Assembly (NCBI GenBank): GCA_049517415.1
Contig: JBEKSC010000014.1
Coordinates: forward strand, 1-64,000
Length of the DNA stretch: 64,000 bases
Origin: Candidatus Bathyarchaeia archaeon
GTDB lineage: Archaea > Thermoproteota > Bathyarchaeia > 40CM-2-53-6
Direction: 5' to 3'
A model generated the notes under the pieces. It did no database searches. It saw only the letters and a program-made list of their open reading frames with translations, and was not told where the DNA came from. Positions 604-15,243 of the stretch are shown here, in pieces. The translations under genes were made by a program, and so were the position numbers. The number at the start of each line of letters is the position of its first letter. Position 1 is the first letter of the stretch.

Positions 604-2337
604 ATGATCAGGCAAGGGAGCTCGCCTGATGCCACCGGTGTAAAGAGGATAGGAGAAAAAGCAACGGTAAGGGAGATCTATGAGATCTCAGAAGTCACGT
701 GTAACCTTATCAGAGATTCCTTTGGACCCGCGGGGCTTTGGAATATCGTCGTGGACGAAACAGGGTACGTACACCGACTGAGAACTGGGTCGGCCATCCT
801 CAACAGAATAGCTCCCAAGAAGGACATACTTAAGGAGCCTAAGCAAAGCGAATCAGGGCAGCTTGCGGTGCATCCGGTCACCGAGATTATGAGTGAAATG
901 GCTGGAGCTGTCACAAGGAGTGTTGGCGACGGTTCTAAGGCTGCGATAATTCTGACCGCGGAGATCCTTGGGAAGAGTTTCAAATCGATCATTGACCCCG
1001 CTATATTCCTGGCTGGGTGCTTGCATGCACGGGATAAATCAATTGAACTAGTACGAAAATCGAGCATGCCTCTTTTGGTGACCCGATCTGGCATACGTAA
1101 GATTGTCAAGACTTTCTTTGATACCGAGTTCATGCCTGAAGAATCAGTCATATTGACTGACATCATTGTCGCGGCAGTTGCAGGGAAGCTCCAGAAAAGC
1201 GACAATGGAACATATTTGTTGGACAGCGATGCGATCTGCATCAAACGGGAAATCGGTGGCAGTATTCTAGACACGCGAGTTTTTGATGGTGTAGCGTTCT
1301 TTAGCGATATACCAAACCCTAGCATGCCTAAGATCGTTGAAAACGCAAAGGTTGCACTCCTGTCTGGAGCCTTAACCTCCGGATTTGACAGAACCGATGC
1401 GAAGTTGAGAACGAGACAATATGATCACGAGGTCATCATTGATGAGCCGGACGATATGAGGGCACTTTATCACGAGAAGACAGCCGCCTGCACCTATATC
1501 CTACGCACGTTACGAAATCTAGAGGTAGGCGCCGTTGTGGTCGGAAAAGGCCTAGAGCCGGAGATAGAGGGAATGCTCGCGAAAGAGGGAATTCTTGCCG
1601 TAAGAAACGTCTACGTCGAAGATCTTCAGAGAATCGCGAGGTTGACTGGGGGTAGGATCGTTTCAGATGCAGCGCTTTTGACGCCTGGAGATTTGGGGAC
1701 GGCACAATTCATCAAAGAAGAGAAGATGGGAGGGCACTCATGGATCTTCATTGGAGGTCAACAGGCTGGGAGAGTGTCAACGGTGCTAGTTCGAGGTTAT
1801 TCCGATGCGATCATCGACGATGCTGAGAGCAAGATACGTGATTCTTTAAGGGTTATTGGGAATTTTGTTTCGCACCCCAGAATCGTTCTCGGCGGAGGGG
1901 CTACCGAAGTTGAACTGGCAGCATATTTGAGAAGAGATGCTGACACGATTGGCGACCGTCAGCAGGTTGTGATTGGACATCTTGCTGAGGCTCTTGAGAG
2001 TATTCCGGCGATTCTAGCTGCCTCGTGTGGTTTGGACCCGATAGACTCGGTAGCCAACCTCAGGATGCTGCACGTGCGAGGAAAACCATCTATGGGCATT
2101 GACGTGTACGAGAGAGAACTGGCGGACATGCATGAAGCTGGCATCTACATACCTCTACCGGTATACGAACAAATCATAAACTCTAGTTTCGAGACGGCGG
2201 CGTGTCTCTTGAGAATCGACGACATTGTTGCCTCTAGAGTACGCCACGGAGGCGAGTATTGGAAGAAACGGATGCAGCAGTTCACGGAACCTCGGAGAGA
2301 GAAACAAATAATCAAAGACTATGGAATGGGACGATAG
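604..2337 (+). CDS. Divergent group II chaperonin (thermosome-like, Cpn60/TCP-1 family)
   Basis: SFGPAG, VGDGSKA (canonical GDGTTT), MPKIVENAKVALL, GGGATEVELA and LLRIDDIV align with the thermosome at 13579; ATG at 604 chosen because the upstream gene ends at 577. Confidence 0.85.
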   Translation: MIRQGSSPDATGVKRIGEKATVREIYEISEVTCNLIRDSFGPAGLWNIVVDETGYVHRLRTGSAILNRIAPKKDILKEPKQSESGQLAVHPVTEIMSEMAGAVTRSVGDGSKAAIILTAEILGKSFKSIIDPAIFLAGCLHARDKSIELVRKSSMPLLVTRSGIRKIVKTFFDTEFMPEESVILTDIIVAAVAGKLQKSDNGTYLLDSDAICIKREIGGSILDTRVFDGVAFFSDIPNPSMPKIVENAKVALLSGALTSGFDRTDAKLRTRQYDHEVIIDEPDDMRALYHEKTAACTYILRTLRNLEVGAVVVGKGLEPEIEGMLAKEGILAVRNVYVEDLQRIARLTGGRIVSDAALLTPGDLGTAQFIKEEKMGGHSWIFIGGQQAGRVSTVLVRGYSDAIIDDAESKIRDSLRVIGNFVSHPRIVLGGGATEVELAAYLRRDADTIGDRQQVVIGHLAEALESIPAILAASCGLDPIDSVANLRMLHVRGKPSMGIDVYERELADMHEAGIYIPLPVYEQIINSSFETAACLLRIDDIVASRVRHGGEYWKKRMQQFTEPRREKQIIKDYGMGR

Positions 2338-2441
2338 CTTTGCAGCATGCCCTACGCCTAAATCCGGACGGTATTACCTCGGGAATTGATCGAGCCCGTG
2401 AGTCACAGTAAGACCTGTGTGCCTTTTGGAAGGGAAGTAGT

Positions 2442-4109
2442 TTGTCACTGAAAAGGCGTAGCACAAAAGAGCTTCAGAAATTGAATATCGAGGCAGGCGC
2501 AGCCATGGGAGAACTAGTAAGAAACTCATTCGGGCCCTGTGGCATGAGTAAAATGATAAGCGATGACAAGGGGCAGACAACGCTCACGGGTGATGGCGCA
2601 GCAATAGTGAGAGCGTTACAAGTTCGCGGCGGGTGGTATCGTGGGCCAAGTCGGAACGGCGATCGCAAGCACGGGGAAATTGAACCAACCATCAATAACC
2701 CGATCTGCAAAATCATGGCGCAAGCGGCCGCAGCCTTGGATGTCGAGCTGGGCGATGGAATCAAATCTATGCTTATTCTCGCGGGAGCTCTCCTCGCGAA
2801 TGCAGAACATCTGCTAGATGACGGCCTGGCTTCTGATCTGATCGTCTCCGGATACAAGAAGGCATACGACAAGGCCGTACAAATCCTCACCGGGACATCG
2901 CTTGTCATAGCACATCAAGATGCGAGTGTTCTTAGAAATCTCGCAATGACTTCCATTCGTAGCAAAGATGTGGGGGCAGGTAGAGAACACCTCCTCGATA
3001 TCTCCATGGCCGCCTCAAACATGATCTTGGATGACTACCCATGGGGCTCTGATATCGACATGAACGAAGTGCTGGAGAATGTGAAGTTTGTCAAAAGAAG
3101 CGGAAAAAGCGTAGCCGATACGGAAATGATCAAGGGCCTCATTGTTGAGAAAGCTGTCGTCAATAGTGGTATGCCCGAAAGAGTTGACAACGCCAGATTA
3201 CTTGTTCTAGAGTCACCGCTCGAGTTAGACAGGAAAGCGTTTCACGTGAGGATCGAGGGTAGACAAGGGTCCCTGAAAGCGTTTCAGGATCAAGAAGATC
3301 GGTTGAGGGATTCGTGGGTCAGGAAAGTGGCAGAATGCGCAGCAAATGTTGTCGTGTGTCAGAGAGGGATAGACGTGAAGACGCAAAGCAGTCTCGCGAA
3401 GAACGGCGTGTTGGGAGTCCACTGGGTCAATAGACGGGATGTGGAAGGGATTGCCAAGGCGACTGGAGCCAAAGTCATGACAAGCATAAGTGATGTAGGT
3501 CCGGAAGATCTCGGCGCCGCAGAGATAGTGGAAGAGAGAACGGTCGGGACAGACAAAATGGTTCTCATAAATGGTTGTAAACAGCCGAAGTGTGTGAGTA
3601 TAATGATTAGAGCGGGGCTGGATAAAGAAGCGGATGAGGCTGAAAGGGCCCTCAGCGATGCAATATGCAGTTTAGCGTCTGTTCGCTCATGCGATAGGAT
3701 TGTAGGAGGTGCAGGCGCTGTCGAAATGGAGGTGGCGAAGAAACTGAGATCATACGCCGTGAAAGTCAGCAGCAAAGAACAACATGCGATAGGGGCATTC
3801 GTAGACTCTCTCGAAACGATTCCCGAGAACTTGGCAAGGAACGCTGGCCTCGATGTAACTGACGTGAAGCTGGCTCTAAGATTAGCTCATGAAAAGGAGG
3901 AGGGATCGTGGCTGGGCATAAACGTCCTATCGCGCAAGATAGAAAACACCCTGACTTGTGGCATAATCGAACCGTACAGCGTCAAGAAACAAGTTCTTCG
4001 AACTGCTGTAGAAGTTGCATCAACCATCATAAGGACAGCCAACATAATATCGTTTCATCCCAATGAAGAAACGGCACCTTCAGCACCTACAGGTGACAGG
4101 GGAGCGTAA
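2442..4109 (+). CDS. Divergent group II chaperonin (thermosome-like, Cpn60/TCP-1 family)
   Basis: SFGPCGMSKM, TGDGAAI, LGDGIKS, EAERALSDA, GGAGAVEME, LARNAGLD, IIEPYSVK. Confidence 0.88.
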   Translation: MSLKRRSTKELQKLNIEAGAAMGELVRNSFGPCGMSKMISDDKGQTTLTGDGAAIVRALQVRGGWYRGPSRNGDRKHGEIEPTINNPICKIMAQAAAALDVELGDGIKSMLILAGALLANAEHLLDDGLASDLIVSGYKKAYDKAVQILTGTSLVIAHQDASVLRNLAMTSIRSKDVGAGREHLLDISMAASNMILDDYPWGSDIDMNEVLENVKFVKRSGKSVADTEMIKGLIVEKAVVNSGMPERVDNARLLVLESPLELDRKAFHVRIEGRQGSLKAFQDQEDRLRDSWVRKVAECAANVVVCQRGIDVKTQSSLAKNGVLGVHWVNRRDVEGIAKATGAKVMTSISDVGPEDLGAAEIVEERTVGTDKMVLINGCKQPKCVSIMIRAGLDKEADEAERALSDAICSLASVRSCDRIVGGAGAVEMEVAKKLRSYAVKVSSKEQHAIGAFVDSLETIPENLARNAGLDVTDVKLALRLAHEKEEGSWLGINVLSRKIENTLTCGIIEPYSVKKQVLRTAVEVASTIIRTANIISFHPNEETAPSAPTGDRGA

Positions 4110-4318
4110 GAGTCGTTCGAGGGCTATTGGAACGTACATATTAAGGAAAGGGGCTTGCCAGCTAATTCGAGGGTACGATCATATCTCATAGCATTGATGG
4201 CACTCATCTATTGGAATGAATAGTCGTACAGGAAAATTCAGTCGACAAACTCGGATTTTTCCGGGAACGGGATACCTACGGCATGACAGACTTGCGGATG
4301 GGAATAGCGATTGGATTC

Positions 4319-5698
4319 TTACGCAAATACTCTTGATTCTATAGACAAATAGTTTGAAACCTCGACCAGTTCGTCGGCCCACTCTCCGTAGACTGCGTGC
4401 ATATGATTTGACCCCACGTTTTTCAACAAATCTTCGGGATCCGACTTTAGCCTCACGAATCCTTGGGGCCAACCTAGTACGGCATTCTTCATTTCCTCAT
4501 TAGGTTGTCTTACAAACTCTGCCGGGGCTATCTGCATGATGTACTTTCCTTGGATCCTTGACAGTCTGGCTAAGGTTATGTCGCCTGGGCTGCATTGGAA
4601 CTGTAGCGACGCCCCTCCCGCGTCGAAAATTTGGGGATAAAGATTTACGAGCTTCAAGTTTTCAGAGGCATCGTCGGACTTGCTTGCGAACCAAGTGGAT
4701 TGCGAGCCACAGTTCATGAAAGTAAGAAGCTTATCAGATTGCGAGAAGTGCCTCAGGTCGAAGAATGCTACGGGCTTACCAGTCAGCAAATAGAGGATCT
4801 CCATGGTCAGTGCGGCGTCTATATCTGCCTCGCACGCTGTTGGAATGATGTGCTTCTCGCCGTCCCAATCATATGGGTCGTTCATAAAGGCCTGGGTAAG
4901 GCATTGAGTGCAATATCCTCCACTAAGTTCTGGGTGACACTTGACGGCTAGAAAATCAAGCCCTTTTTCTCTAACAATTTCCTTCGTGGCTATATAGCTC
5001 GCTATTTGTTTCCTTAGCTTCTCGTCGGTTAGCTTGTTTTGGTCGAAATTTATTTTCGAAACGCTTTCTTGGAGCCATTCATAGGCTTTCTCGATTCCAT
5101 CTTTGGGCACCTTTTCGGCTCTGTTCACGATTTCTAGCTGGTCAATATGTTCGATGTCAACACCGAATATCGAGTGGATTTGGCTGGCGTCGCTCGTTGC
5201 AGTGTACAATCCCATCGGACGACCACCGAACAAGCCCAGAACTCTACCTTTCAATTTGTTTGCTGCGTAAACGGCCCTCGCATGATTCACTATTTTGCTT
5301 AGCGTAGATTTGTCGCCTATTGCCCCCCATATTCTTGCATTCTTGATGCCCAGCTGGTCTAACGCCGCGGCGCCAGCTAGCATTGCAATTAGACCAGCAT
5401 GGGCAGAATCGAGGGTGGAGAATAGAAGGATGGGTATCTTTGCCGTGCTAGCGACTTCAACAATTAGGTTTGGAAAGGTCCACTCCGGAATGAAAAACAG
5501 CAAGCAGTCAATGCCTTGGCAAACCAACTGCTTTGTTTCTTCTATGGCCATCTTAACCGTATGTATTGTGTTCTTGACACGAATCACCTGCAAGTCAGGA
5601 GTGTTGCTTATCCAGTCCGTGAACTCCTGGAATGAGTTTTCCACGTAGGGGTCAGGCAGAGCCCCTGGCGACGACGTCAGAAGGCCGATTCTGATCAA
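4319..5698 (-). CDS. L-fucose/L-arabinose isomerase family protein
   Basis: GGRPMGLYT, AVKCHPEL, ACEADIDAALTM, NCGSQS and SNHMHAVYG motifs of the FucI/AraA superfamily. Confidence 0.8.
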   Translation of the reverse strand: MIRIGLLTSSPGALPDPYVENSFQEFTDWISNTPDLQVIRVKNTIHTVKMAIEETKQLVCQGIDCLLFFIPEWTFPNLIVEVASTAKIPILLFSTLDSAHAGLIAMLAGAAALDQLGIKNARIWGAIGDKSTLSKIVNHARAVYAANKLKGRVLGLFGGRPMGLYTATSDASQIHSIFGVDIEHIDQLEIVNRAEKVPKDGIEKAYEWLQESVSKINFDQNKLTDEKLRKQIASYIATKEIVREKGLDFLAVKCHPELSGGYCTQCLTQAFMNDPYDWDGEKHIIPTACEADIDAALTMEILYLLTGKPVAFFDLRHFSQSDKLLTFMNCGSQSTWFASKSDDASENLKLVNLYPQIFDAGGASLQFQCSPGDITLARLSRIQGKYIMQIAPAEFVRQPNEEMKNAVLGWPQGFVRLKSDPEDLLKNVGSNHMHAVYGEWADELVEVSNYLSIESRVFA

Positions 5699-5726
5699 GT
5701 AAAGGAGTCGCCGTCACGCGTTTTCG

Positions 5727-6239
5727 TTAGCCTCTGTTTTCTTTCACCCAGCCTGCGTCATACGGTGTTTGATAGAAGTGTGTAACCTTGACTTCTTTGA
5801 TTTTCCATTCTCCCGCTTTCTTGACAAAATTCTCGTCATAAGTACCTACGATCCAGCCCGCCCGGTTCTCCGCAGCGAATGTCATAGGCTCTTCATAGTA
5901 CCACCGTCCTCTTGCCTGATTCCCGTTCACCTCGATGAGGTCATTATGGACCATGTGAACGAAGAATGTAGCTGCTTTGGGAACGTCGACCGTAAAGAAT
6001 TGTTTAACGCCCTGTTTTCCTTTGTATATGCCAGTTCCTCCTGCAAAAACGCCCCAATCGGTATATGCGTCGTCAGTAAAACAATTGAGGACCGTATCCC
6101 AATCTCTCTTGTCAAGAGCAAAGGTATATTTCGCTTTCAACTTCTTGATTGCTTCAATATCTTCCAGCTGTTGTACTTTCCTTTCCAAACTAAGAAGTTT
6201 CTTTTCGAGATCTTTTGAAGGCACGTTTGTTTCCCTCAT
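5727..6239 (-). CDS. SnoaL-like / NTF2-fold protein (SnoaL_4, LinA/BaiE-like)
   Basis: LEDIEAIKKLKAKYxxALD, CFTDDA, HMVHN, ARGRWY, GTYDENF..GEWKI. Confidence 0.8.
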   Translation of the reverse strand: MRETNVPSKDLEKKLLSLERKVQQLEDIEAIKKLKAKYTFALDKRDWDTVLNCFTDDAYTDWGVFAGGTGIYKGKQGVKQFFTVDVPKAATFFVHMVHNDLIEVNGNQARGRWYYEEPMTFAAENRAGWIVGTYDENFVKKAGEWKIKEVKVTHFYQTPYDAGWVKENRG

Positions 6240-6401
6240 TCTCCGTCGTCTGTTAGTATTGCAAGGGGTCGCCGCGGCGAAACTTAAAGCCTTTCATCGG
6301 GCAGACCGATCTCGAAGCATGAAATTATATGCAATGCACTCGATGTATTTACTCTATGTAAATTAGCTTTTTTTATATTGATGCCCCAAACATCGCGAAT
6401 C

Positions 6402-7439
6402 ATGAATACGATGAAAGCCGTTGTCCTCCGTGATGTCAAGAATTATAGTATTGAAACGGTGAATGCGCCTCAGATAGGTGCCAATGAAGTTCTTATCAGG
6501 AGTAAGAATTGCGGGATATGCGGTACCGATGTCTCGATGTATCTCGGAAAATACCTTCCAACAAAGCCCGTAATTCCCGGCCATGAGGTTTCCGGCGAAG
6601 TTGTTGAGGTTGGTCAACAAGTAAGGACGATCAGAGTAGGTGATCGGGTCACTATTGATGAAAACGTGTCGTGTGGAACATGCTACTTCTGTAAGCATCA
6701 GCAAAAACTATTGTGCCCCGATTTGTATCAGATAGGTATTCACTCCGACGGAGGTTTTGCAGAATATTTCAAAGCACCCGAGGGCAATATCTTCAAACTA
6801 CCGGACGATATGAGCTATGATTATGCTCCGTTTATCGAGCCGTTGGCATGCGTGACGAGAGCTGTCGATAGAGCAGGAATAGTCACTGGTGACCGAGTTG
6901 TTGTAATTGGAGACGGGCCCATCGGGCTTTCATGTATGCAAGTCGCCAAGATTGACGGAGCTTCGAAGGTAATCGGTGTGGGTCTAATAGACTACAGGCT
7001 GAAGAAGGCGTTAGAGATAGGGGCGGATTTGGTGATAGATAGCTCGAAAGGTGATCCAGTTAAGGCTGTTAGGGAGGCTACGAACAATATTGGTCCAGAT
7101 GTGGTAATTGAAGCCGTTGGTAGCTCAGCTACCTATCTACAAGCACTAGAAATGGTCAGGAGGGGGGGTAAAGTTGCGGTGATGGGTGTCCCGCCGGCAA
7201 CATCCAAGATGGAAATTGAACTGTTTAGCCAGATATTTAACAAAGAACTCACTTTACATGCTTCGTTTGCTGGAACGTACGATACTTGGATAAGGGCAAT
7301 GTCCCTCATTTCATCGGGGCGATTCAAGGTTGGACCATTAATCACCCACAGAATGTCATTGTACGAAGTGCCTGAAGGAGTAAGAATGATGATGGATTTC
7401 AAAAACGGCGCAATCAAGATTCTGGTTTCACCTAAATAG
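6402..7439 (+). CDS. Zinc-dependent medium-chain dehydrogenase (sorbitol/threonine dehydrogenase-like)
   Basis: CGICGTD, GHE, structural Zn CxxCxxC...C, GDGPIG Rossmann motif; TATA-like TTTTATAT at 6371 supports a start near 6402. Confidence 0.9.
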   Translation: MNTMKAVVLRDVKNYSIETVNAPQIGANEVLIRSKNCGICGTDVSMYLGKYLPTKPVIPGHEVSGEVVEVGQQVRTIRVGDRVTIDENVSCGTCYFCKHQQKLLCPDLYQIGIHSDGGFAEYFKAPEGNIFKLPDDMSYDYAPFIEPLACVTRAVDRAGIVTGDRVVVIGDGPIGLSCMQVAKIDGASKVIGVGLIDYRLKKALEIGADLVIDSSKGDPVKAVREATNNIGPDVVIEAVGSSATYLQALEMVRRGGKVAVMGVPPATSKMEIELFSQIFNKELTLHASFAGTYDTWIRAMSLISSGRFKVGPLITHRMSLYEVPEGVRMMMDFKNGAIKILVSPK

Positions 7440-8558: not shown

Positions 8559-8738
8559 TGCGCGGTGGGTTCAGGATGCGTCATGGATGTAGGTCAACTG
8601 CTAACGATGCCACTCCCTCGCAAGCAACGCCATCCACCCTACATGAATCTCTTTGACCATGTGGAACGGAGACGATATAGAAATATGACGGCCTTCGTGA
8701 TCCGCTGTTACGAGGAAAACGCCACGAAGGCTCCAGCC

Positions 8739-9092
8739 AGCATCATGTGGGAGGAAACCTTCGGCCTAGTAATACCGATCACCCATGTGAAGGGTGTCGA
8801 TGAGGCTAGAGAGCTGGCCAACAAGTCACGATACGGTCTCGATTCTTGCCTCTTCACTAATCACATCAATTTGGGTAGGAAAGTTGCGAAACGTCTCGAA
8901 GAAGCCGAGGTAACCATTAATGAGGCACCGCGACATGGAGTGGGCTACTATCCTTTCGGAGGCAACAAAGATTCAGGTATGGGTAGGGAAGGAATCGGAT
9001 ACAGCATCGAAGAAATGACTAGGTTCAAAACCATCGTATACAACCGGAAGCCAGCCAAGGTTTGGGCGGACCTGTTCAAAGAGCGAACTTAG
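8739..9092 (+). pseudogene. C-terminal fragment of an aldehyde dehydrogenase (GAPN-like)
   Basis: WEETFG, ANKSRYGL, INEAPRHG, YPFGGNKDSGMGREG; the N-terminal NAD(P)-binding and catalytic-Cys regions are missing. Confidence 0.8.
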
Positions 9093-9162
9093 TCTCGCAC
9101 ATGCTCGGTTGTTTCATCAGGGCACTTACTCTTGACAGAACCTTAGGCAGAGTGAGCATGGT

Positions 9163-9588
9163 ATGCTTGGTATGTTTCGTAAGCTATGGAAAATGTTTGG
9201 GCCACAGGCATTGAAGTTCTGTGTAGTTGGTGGGCTTGGTGTGATACTAGCTTCTGGGGTGTTGTACGGGCTAACTGAGTACTGTCATGTTTGGTATTTG
9301 TACTCGAACTGGATTGCGGTAGTGGTGGCCCAGATTTTCTCCTTTCTTGGTTACAAGTATTGGGCCTTTACGATTGCGAAGGGTCAAGCTGCTTATCCGA
9401 CCAGTAAGCAGTTTCTGATTCATTGGTTTGTCTGGGGAGTTGGTCTAGGGATTTCGACGCTTGTGATCTACTCCTTGACTACGTATGGGCATGTTTGGTA
9501 CATGCTGTCCAGTTGGGTTGCTACGGCTGTTTCTGGTGCGAGTAATTTTCTCTCTCATCGGTACTGGACGTATTCTCCGAAGGATTAA
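9163..9588 (+). CDS. GtrA family membrane protein
   Basis: 141 aa, four hydrophobic segments, LKFCVVG, SFLGYKYWAF and NFLSHRYWTY patterns. Confidence 0.8.
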   Translation: MLGMFRKLWKMFGPQALKFCVVGGLGVILASGVLYGLTEYCHVWYLYSNWIAVVVAQIFSFLGYKYWAFTIAKGQAAYPTSKQFLIHWFVWGVGLGISTLVIYSLTTYGHVWYMLSSWVATAVSGASNFLSHRYWTYSPKD

Positions 9589-9732
9589 CTAGGAATGCAA
9601 TGTCCGTTGAGAGCGAACTTGCGGGGATAAGTCAAAGGAACCGGCAAGTGCTTAACGCTAATCCAAAATGCTAACGCGAAGAAAGCAAACTCTTAATCAC
9701 CCTCTCCAGCGTCTCGTATTGCGGTTTGGCGT

Positions 9733-10086
9733 GTGAAGTCCGCAATTTTTGTTTCAATACTCGTCGGTGCCGCTCTCATACTTGTTGTACTTGCCTCACC
9801 TTGGTATCCGGTGGCAACAAGCCAAGTAGTACCTCAAATCCTGAGTTATACGACTCAATTCGAAGTGACAACTGGAAGTGTTGAAGTAAAAGAGACCCTG
9901 ACTGCGTACAGCACGAGAAGTGTAACGCTTTATTCGATAACTACGGTTCCTTTCCACAAAATCCTTGGAGTCGTAACTTCCGACGCGATTCTGGTTCTGC
10001 TAGCGTTAGTCCTTGTGCTCTCGACCCTCCTTGATCAAGGAATAATCACCGTGCCCGCAAGGGGTCGCAAGAGTGGGAAGCAGTAG
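9733..10086 (+). CDS. Hypothetical membrane protein (probable passenger of IS unit A)
   Basis: Two hydrophobic helices flanking a Thr/Ser-rich segment; ends 50 bp before an IS6-like right end. Confidence 0.5.
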   Translation: MKSAIFVSILVGAALILVVLASPWYPVATSQVVPQILSYTTQFEVTTGSVEVKETLTAYSTRSVTLYSITTVPFHKILGVVTSDAILVLLALVLVLSTLLDQGIITVPARGRKSGKQ

Positions 10087-10136
10087 CTTTCAAAGGTGTC
10101 AGTAAAGCCCTGGCGCGATTTGAAGCACGCTTTCCC

Positions 10137-10160
10137 GTGTCCCTAGGGTGTAACAGCACC
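10137..10160 (+). repeat. Orphan IS6-family right terminal inverted repeat (unit A)
   Basis: GTGTCCCTAGGGTGTAACAGCACC, 22/24 identical to the end at 11271-11294 and followed by the same CCTGCCTG. Confidence 0.8.
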
Positions 10161-10180
10161 CCTGCCTGGGTTGTGTTAGA

Positions 10181-10423
10181 GGTCAAGTTCACAATAACAA
10201 GATGGAACGCATGAACGGTGAGTTACGGGACAGGTAGAAGGTTGTTAGAGGCGTGAAGCGTGAAGATAACCCTTTGCTGACAGGACTTCAAATCTACCAC
10301 AACTACGTTCGACCACACATGGGCTTAGATGGCAAAACGCCTGCGGAAGTTGCAGGCATCAAAATTAACGGCGATGATAAGTGGCTAACCTTAATCCAAG
10401 CGGCAAGCAAGAAAAACGCCTAG
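10181..10423 (+). pseudogene. Transposase C-terminal fragment with an in-frame stop
   Basis: Translates GQVHNNKMERMNGELRDR*KVVRGVK...YHNYVRPHMGLDGKTPAEVAGI...KWLTLIQAAS, closely matching the C-terminus of 12349-13506; TAG at 10235-10237. Confidence 0.9.
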
Positions 10424-10425
10424 GC

Positions 10426-11217
10426 ATGGTAACCGTACTTCAACGCGCTAGGAAAGTTATTCGAGAGAACGGATATTCCGCCCTATCTTGGAAAATTCTC
10501 TGGAAGCTACCTATTCTACGCTCTCTAGTGCTTTGGCGATTCGCAGTCGCCACTAGAGACATAGGTGCCTTGGAAGATGCAATAGAGTTTGCTTTCTCAG
10601 GGCGATTCGGTGGGCTCATTCGACCTCTTCAAATCCGCAGTGAAATTCACAGCCTCTGCGAAATCGTTGCTGAACATGAACCGAACACAGTCCTTGAAAT
10701 TGGGACGGAGCGTTGCGGTACGCTTTTTCTGTTCAGCCGATTAGCAGCACCTAACGCATTGCTCATCAGTATTGATTTACCGAGAGAAGATTTGAAACCT
10801 TGGAGATCGCTCTGTGAACATCTTGGGAGGCGGGACCAAAAGATTTCTCTCATAGATGGTGATTCCCACGATAACGCTACAGTAGAAAAGCTCCATCAAG
10901 TTCTGGGAGACCGAAAGGTTGACTTTCTGTTCATTGACGGAGACCATTCCTATGACGGTGTGAAGGAGGATTTTGCGACCTATTTCCTATTCATGGAGAA
11001 ACACGGCATAGTGGCCTTCCATGACATTAACCCTGATTACTGGATGAGGTTTGGACAACGGACAGGTCCATGTGGAGGAGAGGTCTACCGGTTCTGGGAT
11101 GAGATAAAGAATCGATTCAAACATGTTGAGTTCATAGACGATTCTGCCCAAGACGGTTATGGCATTGGTATTCTATGGGGTTGTCACAGTGCGCCGAAAA
11201 ACGACGACCAAACGTAG
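10426..11217 (+). CDS. Class I SAM-dependent methyltransferase (Methyltransf_24 type)
   Basis: VLEIGT, LISIDL, IDGDSH, DFLFIDGDHSYDGVKEDF, GIVAFHDI; ATG two nucleotides after the stop of the transposase fragment. Confidence 0.85.
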   Translation: MVTVLQRARKVIRENGYSALSWKILWKLPILRSLVLWRFAVATRDIGALEDAIEFAFSGRFGGLIRPLQIRSEIHSLCEIVAEHEPNTVLEIGTERCGTLFLFSRLAAPNALLISIDLPREDLKPWRSLCEHLGRRDQKISLIDGDSHDNATVEKLHQVLGDRKVDFLFIDGDHSYDGVKEDFATYFLFMEKHGIVAFHDINPDYWMRFGQRTGPCGGEVYRFWDEIKNRFKHVEFIDDSAQDGYGIGILWGCHSAPKNDDQT

Positions 11218-11409
11218 ACATTACGTTACCATCTAAACGCTCATGTCCCGATTTGTAACACCGTTTTCACATGTCCCTAGGGTGTAACAGAACCCCTGCC
11301 TGAAGGCTTTGTTGCGTTCTTGGGACACAACCAAGGGCGTTGCAAAGCGGGACATGGCAGGCGTCATACTGGAGGCATGTTAAATGCCCAAAGAGAGTGA
11401 GGGTGAACT

Positions 11410-12129
11410 ATGCACATCCCCAAGTTAGTGCAAGCGATTGCTACGACAATCAGCTCTGTCATAGACCTTCTTGTGCTCTTGGACCTCTTGGGCTTTATTC
11501 AAACGCCTATCTTTCACGGGGCTGAAATTGTAACGACAAACTCTCAATACTTCATACTCTTGGCTCTAGTAATCTTCGGTTTGCTCACATTTTGGCTTGG
11601 CTATCAGTTTAGTACATGGCGAAATAGAGACTTCATTAACAAAGAAAAGGAGAACTTGACAAAGCCAAACGCCGGTCAATTACAAGTTGCAGAAGTACGG
11701 TTTCCTTATGGGTTGAAAACAGGGAGTACAAGCGCCACGATTTCAGTAACCGATAAACCGCCAATTGAGATAGATGATTTCAGAAACGGTGTTGCAACTG
11801 AGGTGCGTTCCATTTTGACGCTGTTCTCAGACCCCTTACAGCATTGGAACATCACGTATCCGATTTGGTCTAGCAAGGCCGACGCATCAAGGGCAGCACT
11901 ACTCGGCATACAGGATTATTTTGTATTGAGACTCTTATATGACGCAATAGAGGGTCGAAACAGGTACTTCGCTGGGAGGCTCGGTATGGATGTTGAAGAA
12001 CTAGAGCCTCTAAACCTGACCTGCGTTAAGGCGTTTTCGCGGGCGTACAGCGAAGTTTCTTGGCTCAAAACCGAATCCTACATTGATTCTCTGCTCGCGA
12101 AAGCTAGGAAAGCTGTAGGTTTGCGCTAG
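11410..12129 (+). CDS. Hypothetical protein with two N-terminal TM helices (passenger of unit C)
   Basis: 239-aa ORF inside the TIRs; two hydrophobic segments followed by a soluble domain; no recognised motif. Confidence 0.65.
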   Translation: MHIPKLVQAIATTISSVIDLLVLLDLLGFIQTPIFHGAEIVTTNSQYFILLALVIFGLLTFWLGYQFSTWRNRDFINKEKENLTKPNAGQLQVAEVRFPYGLKTGSTSATISVTDKPPIEIDDFRNGVATEVRSILTLFSDPLQHWNITYPIWSSKADASRAALLGIQDYFVLRLLYDAIEGRNRYFAGRLGMDVEELEPLNLTCVKAFSRAYSEVSWLKTESYIDSLLAKARKAVGLR

Positions 12130-12263
12130 GTGTCTTTCGTTTTGAAGTATTCTCCTAGTACGGCTCTTACTGCTTCGGGTATAGATTCCAGTTTTCGTGC
12201 CTTACGTTCTTGTTCTAGGGCTTTCACCATTTCGTCTGACATGGCTACCATTATTTTGTTCAT
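12126..12263 (-). CDS. Small ribbon-helix-helix (CopG-like) DNA-binding protein, absent from the ORF track
   Basis: Hand translation MNKIMVAMSDEMVKALEQERKARKLESIPEAVRAVLGEYFKTKDT (45 aa): alternating beta strand, helix, S-x-x-E-x-V-R helix; divergent from the transposase. Confidence 0.7.
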   Translation of the reverse strand: MNKIMVAMSDEMVKALEQERKARKLESIPEAVRAVLGEYFKTKDT

Positions 12264-12348
12264 TGCCAAGGTTGATTCGCTACCATTGTATAGCGATAGC
12301 AACCCTTATAGCTTTTGGCTGTGTATAGCGATGTGTAGCGATTGGTAT

Positions 12349-13506
12349 ATGGCAACTGTGATAGTAACCCGCGAGGAACGGGGAAGAATGATTGCCGAAC
12401 AAGCAAACCAAGTCCAAAGGCTAGATGAACGAAACTACAAGGTCAATTCTCAGAGCCGTGAAATTAGCTATGATGTTGTACGTAGCGATAAGTTCGCTAT
12501 GCGTTGGGTTTGCACTTGCCCCGACTGGCAGTTTCGCCAAGTCAAATGCAAGCACATTTGGGCGGTTGAGTTCTCCGAAGCGTTGAGGAACAAGGTTAAG
12601 CAGAATGTCGTGATTGAGCCATTAAGCCCAAGCGTATGCCCCTACTGCGCTTCAAATCAGCTAGTTCGACACGGGTTAAGACATAACAAGTATGGCGATC
12701 TTCAAAGATTCACATGCCGAAGTTGCCGAAAACGGTTCTCTCAGAACTTAGGCTTCGAGGGGATGAAAGCTAACCCTCAGTCTATCACTTCGGCTATGCA
12801 ACTTTACTTCACGGGCGAGAGCCTAAGAAACGTACAGAAGTTTCTACGGTTGCAAGGAGTCGAAGTTCATTACACGACTGTTTATCGTTGGATTCAGAAA
12901 TATGTCGAAATCATGGGACACTACTTAGAACAAATGCAACCACAGGTAGGAAACACTTGGCGAGCCGATGAACTATTCCTGAAAGTGCACGGCGATATGA
13001 AGTACCTGTATGCGCTCATGGACGATGAAACCCGCTTCTGGATTGCCAAAGAAGTCTCAGACACTAAGTACCATGCTGATGTTCAAGACCTATTCAAACA
13101 AGGCCGAAAAATTGCTGGCAAGGCACCATTCCACATAATCACTGATGGAGCAAGGAACTTTCATGCGGGAATTGAGAGCGAGTTTTGGAGAGAGAAGAAA
13201 CAACTTGCGCTAGTGCATGAGCGTGATATACGCTTTGGTGGGGAAATTCACAACAATAAGATGGAACGGATGAACGGAGAAATTAGGGACAGGGAAAAGG
13301 TTGTTAGAGGCGTAAAGAAACCCGATAGCCCTCTAATCGAAGGCTATCAAATCTATCACAACTACGTACGACCACACATGGCACTTGACGGTCAAACCCC
13401 AACCGATAGAGCGGGTATCGAAATTCAAGGTGGTGACAAGTGGCTGACCCTAATCCAAGCGGCAAGCCGTGTCCCGAAAAGCAACGAGAAAAGGCGTGTC
13501 CCATGA
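12349..13506 (+). CDS. IS6-type DDE transposase with N-terminal SWIM zinc finger and Zn ribbon
   Basis: CTCPD..CKHIWAV (SWIM), CPYC..CRSC, HTH SLRNVQKFL..TTVYRW, WRADE, ITDG, NNKMER; ATG at 12349. Confidence 0.9.
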   Translation: MATVIVTREERGRMIAEQANQVQRLDERNYKVNSQSREISYDVVRSDKFAMRWVCTCPDWQFRQVKCKHIWAVEFSEALRNKVKQNVVIEPLSPSVCPYCASNQLVRHGLRHNKYGDLQRFTCRSCRKRFSQNLGFEGMKANPQSITSAMQLYFTGESLRNVQKFLRLQGVEVHYTTVYRWIQKYVEIMGHYLEQMQPQVGNTWRADELFLKVHGDMKYLYALMDDETRFWIAKEVSDTKYHADVQDLFKQGRKIAGKAPFHIITDGARNFHAGIESEFWREKKQLALVHERDIRFGGEIHNNKMERMNGEIRDREKVVRGVKKPDSPLIEGYQIYHNYVRPHMALDGQTPTDRAGIEIQGGDKWLTLIQAASRVPKSNEKRRVP

Positions 13507-13522
13507 ACGCAACAGAACCTGC

Positions 13523-13537
13523 CTGAAATTTTATATA
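13523..13537 (+). promoter_or_regulatory. Predicted BRE/TATA box of the thermosome gene
   Basis: CTGAAAT followed by TTTATATA (13530-13537), about 40 nt upstream of the start codon. Confidence 0.6.
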
Positions 13538-13578
13538 GGGGGGATTTTTACCTGCAGTAACAAAATCGGTGTAGTGTG

Positions 13579-15243
13579 ATGTCGGAACAAAGTGTACCTG
13601 TCATAATATTGAAGGAAGGAACTCAACGAACTCAAGGTAGAGACGCGCAACGAAACAATATCCTTGCAGCCAAGGTCGTTGCTCAAACGGTCAGGACAAC
13701 CCTGGGGCCACGCGGAATGGACAAGATGCTCGTCAGCGGGATGGGAGACGTTGTCATCACAAATGACGGCGCCACGATCATGAAAGAACTCGATATCCAG
13801 CACCCCGCGGCGAAGATGCTTGTCGAAGTTGCAAAAACACAAGATAACGAGGTAGGTGATGGAACCACAACGGCAGTACTCCTAACTGGCGAATTACTCG
13901 ACAAGGCCGAGAAACTCTTAGACAGAGAAGTGCACCCCACTATGATTGTTGAAGGCTACAAGAAGGCGGCGGAACAGGCGAAGGATATTCTTGAGGCGAT
14001 CTGTGAGAAGATCAACACGGAGGATGCGGAAACTCTCACGAGGATTGCAATGACGGCGATGAGCACCAAGGGGGTAACGGGTGCGAAGGACCATCTAGCA
14101 AAGATAGCAGTCGAGGCAGCACTTCAAATCAAGGAAACGAGGGACGGCAAGACGAAGGTTGACGTTGACCTCGTCAAGGTATTGAAGAAACATGGTAAGA
14201 GCTTGGAAGAAACGGAGCTCGTTCGCGGCATAGTGATCGACAAGGAAGTTGCTCATCCCCAAATGCCCAAGCGCACCGAAAACGCCAAGATTGCCCTACT
14301 CAACGCGAAGCTCGAAATCGAGAAAACCGAGTTCGACGCGAAGATCAACATCGACAGTCCGAATCAAATGAAACTCTTCCTGGATGAAGAGGAACGTATG
14401 CTCAAGGAAATGGTTGATGATGTCGTAAAGAGCGGCGCTAACTTCGTATTCTGCGAAAAATCCATCGACGATATGGTGCTTCACTTTCTCTCAAAGAAGG
14501 GGATTGCAGCAGTGAAGAACGTGAGCAGCGGTGATATGGAGAAACTCTCCAAGGCGACGGGCGCCAAAATCGTAGCGAACCTCAAGGACCTAGGGAAGGA
14601 ATCCCTTGGTGAAGCCAAGGTGATCGAGGAGGCCAAGATCGGCGATGACAAACTAACCTACATAAGGGATGCTAAGAATCCGATGGCTGTGACGATTGTT
14701 ATTCGAGGAGGAACTGAGCATGTTGTGGACGAGGCTGAACGTTCCCTCCACGACGCTCTATGCGTAATTCGGGACGCGATCGAGGATGGGAAGATAGTGG
14801 CTGGCGGAGGCGCGGCTGAAGCCGAGACCGCCAAGCAACTACGCGGCTACGCAGTCAAGGTCGGTGGCCGTGAGCAATTGGCCATAGAGGCGTTCGCAGA
14901 TGCCGTCGAAAGCGTACCCCTAGCCCTCGCTGAGAACGCTGGCCTAGACCCAATCGACATTATGGTAGCTTTGCGCGCCAAGCATGAGAGCCCTGAGAAC
15001 CGCTGGTACGGCGTCGACGTCTTCTCCGGCGAAGTTAGAGACACACGCAGCTTAAACGTGATCGAGCCGCTGCGCGTGAAACTGCAAGTTATCAAGTCCG
15101 CTACTGAAGCAGCATCAATGATTCTGCGCATCGATGATGTCGTGGCCTCCAAGGGAGGCGGGGGAGGTGGACCACCCATGCCCCCAGGCGGCGGAATGCC
15201 CGGCGGCATGCCTGGTGGAATGCCTGGCGGAGACGAGTACTAA
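13579..15243 (+). CDS. ths: Thermosome subunit (canonical group II chaperonin)
   Basis: [33 protein letters not shown]-terminal GGMP repeats. Confidence 0.97.

Follow-up and report, generated by a model that had tools for sequence, protein, structure and literature searches.

The locus studied here raises the question of why insertion sequences (IS) should stand end to end directly upstream of a core promoter that has itself been left intact. The window, by which we mean the whole stretch of 64,000 nt that was analysed (contig JBEKSC010000014.1 of assembly GCA_049517415.1, whose positions within the window are used throughout), belongs to the archaeal genome that we call G000, and carries three IS6-type elements upstream of a thermosome gene. 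These are termed units A, B and C, with C closest to the promoter. Our answer is that an IS6-family transposase probably sets insertion at a fixed distance upstream of the core promoter, and that stacks arise by reuse of the site. In what follows, other G-numbers denote other archaeal genomes, C-numbers contigs of G000, and L-numbers related loci.

Three IS6-type right inverted repeats lie on the plus strand (Table 1), ending at 10160, 11294 and 13519 and each followed by the target sequence, exactly as an earlier note on this DNA had described; the repeats of B and C are respectively 92% and 72% identical to that of A. Unit B is flanked by CCTGCCTG at 10161-10168 and 11295-11302, and unit C by a perfect 8-bp repeat, TGCCTGAA, at 11297-11304 and 13520-13527, the two duplications being offset by 2 bp. 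These boundaries, too, had been claimed before and are confirmed in the sequence. The TATA box of the thermosome gene starts 2 nt past the duplication of unit C, and the core promoter is kept in all 12 of the orthologous upstream regions compared. Unit C has 25-nt terminal inverted repeats that start with GG and are 88% complementary (repeat pair I1), and its transposase comprises a SWIM finger, a zinc ribbon and an IS240-type DDE core, its best NCBIfam match being transpos_IS6 (106.5 bits over model positions 1-200 of 202, a score below the equivalog cut-off of 125). The left end of unit B is reduced to about 11 nt of repeat-like sequence (10169-10179), fused to a transposase fragment (10181-10423) that keeps codons of about 297-374, the last 77 or so, and contains an in-frame TAG at 10235-10237; over residues 297-373 it is 75% identical to the transposase of C (tblastn). 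Decay is graded along the stack: C is intact, B is deleted and has a stop codon, and A retains about 20 transposase codons and an accessory open reading frame (ORF). The earlier note had seen this gradient, correctly for B and C, and was mistaken in taking A for a bare orphan end. The best explanation of the gradient is that A inserted first, followed by B and then C.

Repeated ends such as these might arise from a collapsed or mis-joined repeat, a danger that the earlier note had itself raised, and it speaks for such an origin that G000 was assembled from a metagenome, into 59 contigs and with 6.86% contamination, and that related copies sit at contig ends (contig C12; genome G015). However, the A/B, B/C and C/promoter junctions are all bridged by contigs of four out of four public runs, among which the source sample may be included, with 0 differences and no alternative joints. 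Sequence words sampled from the stretch are present to at least 97% in 20 runs from 18 studies, and equivalent stacks occur in near-complete assemblies of relatives (3 to 10 contigs). We regard an assembly artefact as scarcely credible.

Evidence for the placement of these elements comes also from the flanks of their relatives. The family as a whole numbers 4889 protein clusters. A search of public genomes with an alignment of five transposases yielded 549 relatives, of which the best 76 loci, from Bathyarchaeia, Nitrososphaeria, Methanoperedens and one Asgard genome, were analysed. Fifty of the 76 gave a repeat pair together with a perfect 8-bp duplication, providing 100 flanks; element length has a median of 3260 bp and a range of 2031-6554. 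Twenty-eight flanks adjoin another family end at offset 0, which leaves 72 free, and these were searched for the TATA-like hexamer TT[TA]A[TA][AT], with offsets counted outward from the end of the 8-bp duplication. The hexamer starts at offset 5 in 24 of the 72 free flanks and within offsets 3-8 in 29; offsets 3, 4, 6 and 7 account for 3, 1, 2 and 1 flanks, and there are no starts at offsets 0-2 or 8-14. Per position, the hexamer has a background rate of 0.002 in these loci as a whole and of 0.004 in their intergenic parts, against which the count at the single offset 5 has p = 2e-39. The hexamer never occurs on both sides of one element, and the side is random (14 left-end, 15 right-end). The common orientation of units A, B and C is thus no general rule. 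Past the duplication the consensus runs [C/A]AA[T/A]A and then TTTATAT, which from its letters reads as a transcription factor B recognition element (BRE) plus a TATA box, while the duplications themselves have no sequence in common.

When a looser A/T criterion is applied, 43 of the 72 flanks qualify, representing 32 promoter clusters and 39 promoter-by-duplication combinations, and in 33 of these 43 an outward ORF starts 20-199 nt further on, as befits genuine promoters. Twenty-eight outward ORFs were scanned, the five under 75 aa being left out, and 24 of the 28 have Pfam matches: thermosome (4), Hsp20 (4), RadA (3), TFB (3), ribosomal proteins (3), M48 peptidase (2) and others (5). The earlier note had proposed that elements insert just before the BRE/TATA without damage to the promoter, and that the distance from duplication to TATA box be plotted across relatives; the sharp peak at offset 5 supports the proposal.

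Could such a distribution be produced by random insertion followed by selection, with survival limited to insertions that harm neither gene nor promoter? In archaea the intergenic regions are short, any insertion inside a gene or downstream of the TATA box would be lost, and our data consist entirely of fixed insertions, all of which lends the idea some plausibility. Nevertheless, selection cannot yield a peak one nucleotide wide that stands so far above the intergenic background and is followed by an empty stretch at offsets 8-14, nor can it explain the exact reuse of 8 bp up to five times, and an IS5-like element in a genome whose classical IS6 copies are described below shows no such peak in 15 flanks. 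We consider it very improbable that selection accounts for the pattern, and infer that the transposase, rather than selection, sets the position.

The stacks pose a separate question, namely whether newcomers are drawn to the promoter or to the inverted repeat of a resident relative, in which case the promoter position would be an accident of the first landing. Attraction to resident ends has in its favour the 28 flanks at offset 0, the stack junctions of exactly 8 bp throughout, and the identical copy at an inner junction in L034 that is discussed below. There is also precedent, given that IS30 and IS911 are reported to target inverted repeats, coming in this way to adjoin the ends of relatives, and that IS26 inserts next to IS26 (all in the available sections of PMC7986276). 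However, single elements without a neighbour follow the TATA rule, 15 of 27 by the strict criterion and 23 of 27 by the loose one, so that in our elements, in contrast to IS30 and IS911, the promoter appears to be the target and the adjoining of ends a by-product. Stacks moreover grow on the promoter side only: of 18 terminal elements with an intact transposase, 14 by the strict criterion, and 17 when the loose one is admitted as well, face the promoter, though the far end offers the same repeat and 8-mer. Nor does the IS26 route fit, for according to those same sections of PMC7986276 the arrays of IS26 form by a targeted conservative reaction that makes no duplication and needs an identical resident copy, whereas duplications flank B and C, whose transposases share only 75% of their residues. 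Attraction by resident ends is in our judgement unlikely.

Insertion directed by the promoter remains the reading that we prefer, and the internal structure of the stacks agrees with it. Spacers within a stack are identical 8-mers across up to five junctions, and walks along stacks end at a TATA box. One such stack, on a single Bathyarchaeota contig (L033/L034), lies upstream of an Hsp20 gene and has five TTACGTAA junctions. Identical spacers and outward decay uphold the earlier picture of a chronological stack, built by reuse of the same 8 bp and youngest at the promoter.

The same thermosome promoter was examined at 14 orthologous loci in 13 genomes of the genus. At eight of these (in G000, G014, G018, G016, G013, G017 and, twice, G004) the thermosome ATG is preceded, at about 59 bp, by a family end, which is followed by 8 bp and then by 2-5 nt leading to TTTATA. 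From genome to genome both the elements and the 8-mers vary (GGCCCAGC, CGCGCCCG and GTGAAGGA are examples of the latter). G017 has a series of four elements with exactly 8 bp at each joint; transposase genes are intact in the two promoter-proximal elements and reduced to fragments in the two behind. G014 and G016 have the same polarity of decay, the proximal element of G016 being inverted, a further exception to a common orientation. The six remaining loci comprise four that are element-free, one with a contig break 60 bp upstream, and one that is ambiguous. The comparison across strains that the earlier note had called for did reveal differently loaded promoters. It did not reveal an empty allele of the same locus, and the six proteins upstream of the G000 stack are unmatched in the thermosome-upstream regions of 12 relatives.

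Elsewhere in G000 the family is represented by five full transposase genes and several fragments (tblastn), and a repeat-pair search found six complete elements of 2.2-4.9 kb whose 8-bp duplications are perfect or match at 7 of 8 positions. The TATA rule is followed at four of the five full-element loci, upstream of the thermosome gene, an Hsp20 gene, a TBP gene and a cytochrome oxidase operon, and further relic ends adjoin TATA boxes at C5:16919, C6:8128, C8:35050 and C4:109415. Two more stacks are present. On C23, elements joined by TTACGTAA stand just upstream of the TATA box of the Hsp20 gene. On C6, an element (C6a) adjoins an orphan left end, for which a partner end was sought and none found, and its opposite side lies upstream of the TBP gene. 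The elements share an order of parts: left end, small membrane ORFs, a small divergent DNA-binding gene, the transposase, a further ORF and the right end.

This shared order bears on what the earlier note had taken the locus to be, an integron-like system of gene accretion. On such a reading the stack would be an array useful to the host, one that collects and keeps cargo genes beside a strong promoter. In its favour, every unit does carry non-transposase genes and the order of units is chronological. On the other hand, the thermosome promoter faces away from the stack, the older units have been trimmed, with loss of genes, and the accessory genes are part of the element architecture at all sites. 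The 117-aa ORF of unit A shares N-terminal homology with the ORFs that follow the transposase in elements C23a and C23b, and the "cargo" is thus largely the accessory set of the family itself. The ORFs scanned for Pfam domains, 10 in the window, included no tyrosine-recombinase integrase and no attI/attC system was found with them; the units are bounded instead by inverted repeats and duplications. Gene accretion of this kind is therefore not supported, and we put its probability as very low. The companion statement that each unit sits with a different non-transposase gene stands insofar as each carries extras, and needs amending for unit C, which has two (a 239-aa ORF and a ribbon-helix-helix gene). 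Clustering of the accessory genes at E <= 1e-6 grouped only the small regulators, of at least three fold types, and antisense artefacts, the membrane ORFs being too diverse.

A number of observations weigh against insertion at a fixed distance from the promoter, or limit the force of the evidence for it. Twenty-six of the 76 loci had to be dropped, mostly short contigs, with no repeat or duplication solution, and many of the remainder represent related genomes or the same promoter, so that the 50 elements are not 50 independent events. Four of the 27 single elements (L037, L045, L048 and L055) are without any A/T-rich flank, and one of these, L045, is the same element as the promoter-bound copy L044. 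Within G000, element C3a has no TATA flank, and in the window itself the distances are 2 nt (C) and 4 nt (B) rather than the modal 5. Five intact-transposase elements are located inside stacks. The L033/L034 stack holds two copies of 2644 bp, 100% identical and inverted relative to each other, of which one is promoter-adjacent and the other the fourth unit. Either insertion at inner spacers also occurs, or an inversion moved the copy; the identical inverted copies would fit intramolecular replicative transposition with inversion, and are the one hint seen of the cointegrate route known from IS6. The element-free relatives have other upstream neighbours at their thermosome genes, which map to contig C13 of G000, and they accordingly represent an empty state of the promoter and not an empty allele of the same locus. 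The negative control outside IS6, described next, is small (8 copies). Lastly, the data are fixed insertions only, transposition in action not being among them, and selection has therefore filtered the set that we observe.

As a negative control for the N-terminal domains, SWIM in particular, we chose a classical IS6 in genome G404, another archaeon of the same phylum; this element is 667 bp long, with a transposase of about 207 aa and no SWIM domain. There are 41 copies; 40 were retrieved, and in 34 of these the two halves of the duplication agree at 7 or all 8 positions. This control turned out to follow a rule of its own: in 21 of 68 flanks, where 3.5% would be expected (p = 9e-15), the hexamer starts 10-13 nt past the duplication, and there are no starts at offsets 3-8. 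An IS5-like element of the same genome, in 8 copies, gave scattered matches and no peak in 15 flanks. The promoter rule thus extends beyond the SWIM-bearing branch, to one classical archaeal IS6. That targeting might be due to the SWIM domain by itself was an idea that we dropped when the SWIM-less element showed a TATA peak at a different distance; the SWIM module is not the sole cause of targeting.

The elements recur at many promoters and in several archaeal phyla, at a fixed distance and on one side, with reuse of the site and with age polarity. The mechanism that we propose would run as follows. The elements belong to a large branch of archaeal IS6, are 2-6.5 kb in length and have accessory genes; their transposase combines a SWIM zinc finger, a zinc ribbon and a helix-turn-helix with the IS240-type DDE core. 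This transposase would make its 8-bp staggered cut at the outer, upstream border of the BRE, leaving about 5 nt (range 2-7) between the duplication and the TATA box, and the element could insert in either orientation. Insertion would spare the BRE, the TATA box and the gene, and would recreate the 8-bp target next to the promoter. With BRE and TATA spared and the 8-mer recreated, the promoter would remain a target, hence the stacks: later family members would hit the same 8 bp and displace older ones outward, leaving an 8-bp-spaced stack with the youngest unit at the promoter and decaying units behind.

As to how the transposase recognises the promoter, we have a preferred guess, contact with the bent promoter bound by TBP and TFB. 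We favour this slightly over direct readout of BRE/TATA DNA, which is nearly as likely, on account of the cut at the BRE border, the strong promoters among the targets, and the two clades with different fixed spacings. Structure prediction did not inform the choice. A complex of the TFB core, TBP and transposase residues 1-195 was predicted with a score of zero, which says nothing either way, and the transposase model, built from a 39-sequence alignment, has a mean predicted local distance difference test (pLDDT) of 64.4, with about 80 in the SWIM part and a poor catalytic part. A Foldseek search of this model against the PDB found nothing at E <= 0.001 and only weak retroviral integrase cores, and a sequence search of solved structures with the transposase gave one match at chance level (E = 0.29). 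A more ambitious version, to which we give rather less than an even chance, is that archaeal IS6 transposases read the assembled, TBP/TFB-bent BRE/TATA as a prokaryotic counterpart of Ty3-TFIIIB tethering, that this habit was ancestral to the classical (10-13 nt) and SWIM (5 nt) branches, and that the N-terminal module sets the spacing. If that reading is true, strong housekeeping and heat-shock promoters would be permanent landing pads, and stacks would record the history of invasion.

The yeast retrotransposons Ty3 and Ty1, like other promoter-tethered elements of eukaryotes, integrate a short and constant distance away from a landmark of transcription initiation, of which TBP-containing factors are part, and for them the tether is proven; both are eukaryotic retroelements with an integrase, and target genes transcribed by RNA polymerase III. 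Along with Tn7 in bacteria, these eukaryotic elements are known examples of transposons that select safe sites by reading a host landmark. Our elements resemble Ty3 and Ty1 in the fixed short distance, in the use of a safe haven upstream of highly expressed genes and in repeated hits on the same sites, and differ from them in having a DDE transposase, in living in archaea, and in that the tether is here hypothesised. They are not Tn7-like, given that the element ORFs yielded only SWIM, zinc-ribbon, DDE, ribbon-helix-helix and methyltransferase matches, with no TnsD/TniQ or TnsABC. A further parallel is offered by site-specific elements of archaea, the casposons and tyrosine-recombinase elements, which form tandem arrays by regenerating their integration site, and do so by Cas1 or tyrosine recombinases at specific sites such as tRNA and ef-2 genes (PMC6563490, in the sections available). 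In contrast, the enzyme here is a DDE transposase, and any 8-mer will serve that is correctly placed with respect to the BRE/TATA.

Affinity with IS6 and IS26 is evident in the IS240-type DDE core, in the IS6 model being the best NCBIfam match over its whole length, in the 8-bp duplications, in the tendency to form arrays, and in terminal repeats that begin GG and resemble those of the classical archaeal 667-bp IS6 (GGCTCTGTTCA...). The differences concern size, domains and target. Members of IS6 are compact, at 789-880 bp, with a single transposase gene taking up nearly all of the length, and one named member has a passenger gene, according to the available part of the IS6 review (PMC7986276), whereas unit C has 2215 bp and two further genes, and the family described here spans 2-6.5 kb. 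The transposase here has an additional N-terminal SWIM finger and zinc ribbon; the same part of the review describes a zinc-finger clade in Clostridia, without mention of SWIM, and the closest comparators that it offers are the zinc-finger "clade h" and ISDsp3. Likewise, no target specificity of the kind seen in the fixed TATA distance is described there.

Full-text literature searches, whose coverage excludes subscription journals, returned no description of TATA-directed insertion in archaea. The literature searched, as far as its text was available, describes no archaeal transposon that reads a landmark and none anywhere that uses the BRE/TATA core promoter. In the available portion of a 2026 survey of archaeal IS the words promoter, TATA and target site are absent; a re-annotation of Pyrococcus furiosus discusses IS6 copies without target rules in its accessible sections (PMC6640164); and a 2019 survey of thaumarchaeal mobile elements states, in the part available, that passenger-carrying transposons are undetected in archaea (PMC6563490). 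The elements would be target-selecting transposons for which the landmark, the core promoter, and the domain of the host are both new. Should the rule hold, it would account for the accumulation of IS6-type elements in front of chaperone, ribosomal, RadA and TFB genes, and would provide a sequence-independent marker of real archaeal promoters in uncultured lineages as well as a natural tool for promoter-adjacent insertion. It would also make the use of TBP/TFB as a tether by a prokaryotic transposase testable, and would correct the 2019 statement on passenger-carrying transposons, as worded in that available part.

The features of the stack and its surroundings are collected in Table 1; domain calls were made by Pfam and NCBIfam scans.

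Table 1. Features between the oldest candidate relic and the thermosome gene, in window positions
Feature	Position	Strand	Basis
Possible still older right-end relic	9121..9142	+	16/22 match to family repeat library; weak; 8 bp before next unit
GtrA-like membrane protein gene	9163..9588	+	Pfam GtrA_DPMS_TM, 58.6 bits
Unit A transposase relic, last ~20 codons	about 9631..9693	+	Ends like the C-termini of the B and C transposases; repeat family D4
Unit A 117-aa accessory ORF with membrane segment	9733..10086	+	ORF list
Unit A right inverted repeat	10136..10160	+	Repeat family D2; fuzzy repeat search
8-bp spacer CCTGCCTG, left copy of unit B duplication	10161..10168		Repeat family D3 runs through spacer
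Unit B, 1126 bp, internally deleted	10169..11294	+	Right repeat 11270-11294 (family D2)
Unit B methyltransferase gene	10426..11217	+	Pfam Methyltransf_24, 50.6 bits
CCTGCCTGAA: right copy of B duplication (11295-11302) overlapping left copy of C duplication (11297-11304)	11295..11304		Sequence
Unit C, 2215 bp, intact	11305..13519	+	Left repeat 11305-11329, right repeat 13495-13519
Unit C 239-aa ORF	11410..12129	+	ORF inside unit C
Unit C divergent ribbon-helix-helix gene	12126..12302	-	Pfam RHH_1
Unit C transposase, 385 aa, intact	12349..13506	+	Pfam DDE_Tnp_IS240, 47.9 bits (cut-off 27); SWIM, 30 bits
TGCCTGAA, right copy of unit C duplication	13520..13527		Sequence
Thermosome core promoter: AT, then TATA box TTTATATA (13530-13537)	13528..13537	+	Sequence
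Palindrome TTACCTGCAGTAAC between TATA box and ATG, putative operator	13548..13561		Sequence; function inferred
Thermosome subunit gene, ATG at 13579	13579..15243	+	Pfam Cpn60_TCP1, 618 bits

The GtrA-like gene may belong either to unit A, as an accessory gene in its upstream part, or to the host; in the relatives, nothing corresponding to it precedes the thermosome gene. The 117-aa ORF of unit A has no match in Pfam or NCBIfam. Just before the oldest candidate relic, positions 8565-9092 encode only the last 100 or so residues of an aldehyde dehydrogenase (Pfam positions 361-461 of 461), and a similar fragment stands beside element C3a; the fragment may be the remnant of an element-mediated deletion. 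Further upstream, two divergent Cpn60/TCP1-like ORFs (868-2253 and 2688-4094) are 31% and 38% identical to the thermosome subunit.

Two kinds of small component recur in the family. A small gene, oriented divergently from the transposase gene, is present in almost all elements; its products have one or another of several unrelated DNA-binding folds (ribbon-helix-helix, AbrB-like and a third family), and it is probably a transposition regulator that has been replaced repeatedly. There are also mini elements, of 353 bp (C4:109415-109767) and 84 bp (L046:8948-9031), with little beyond two family ends, which have 8-bp duplications and are located at promoter or stack positions; these are probably non-autonomous derivatives. 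Family members occur, too, on three contigs labelled bacterial (L063, L068 and L093). An archaeal TFB gene lies beside the element on L063, and at least that contig is therefore probably mis-binned.

Finally, a palindrome of the type (G)TTAC-N4/5-GTAA(C) lies between TATA box and start codon in thermosome, Hsp20 and M48 peptidase genes: it is present in the thermosome orthologues, in the Hsp20 promoter (L004, C23) and in the M48 peptidase promoter (flank of C6:8128). The palindrome is a candidate heat-shock operator, and element-free thermosome promoters have a further copy of it adjoining the TATA box on the upstream side. Where elements have ends that start GGTAACG, the end together with the duplication TTACGTAA recreates the palindrome.

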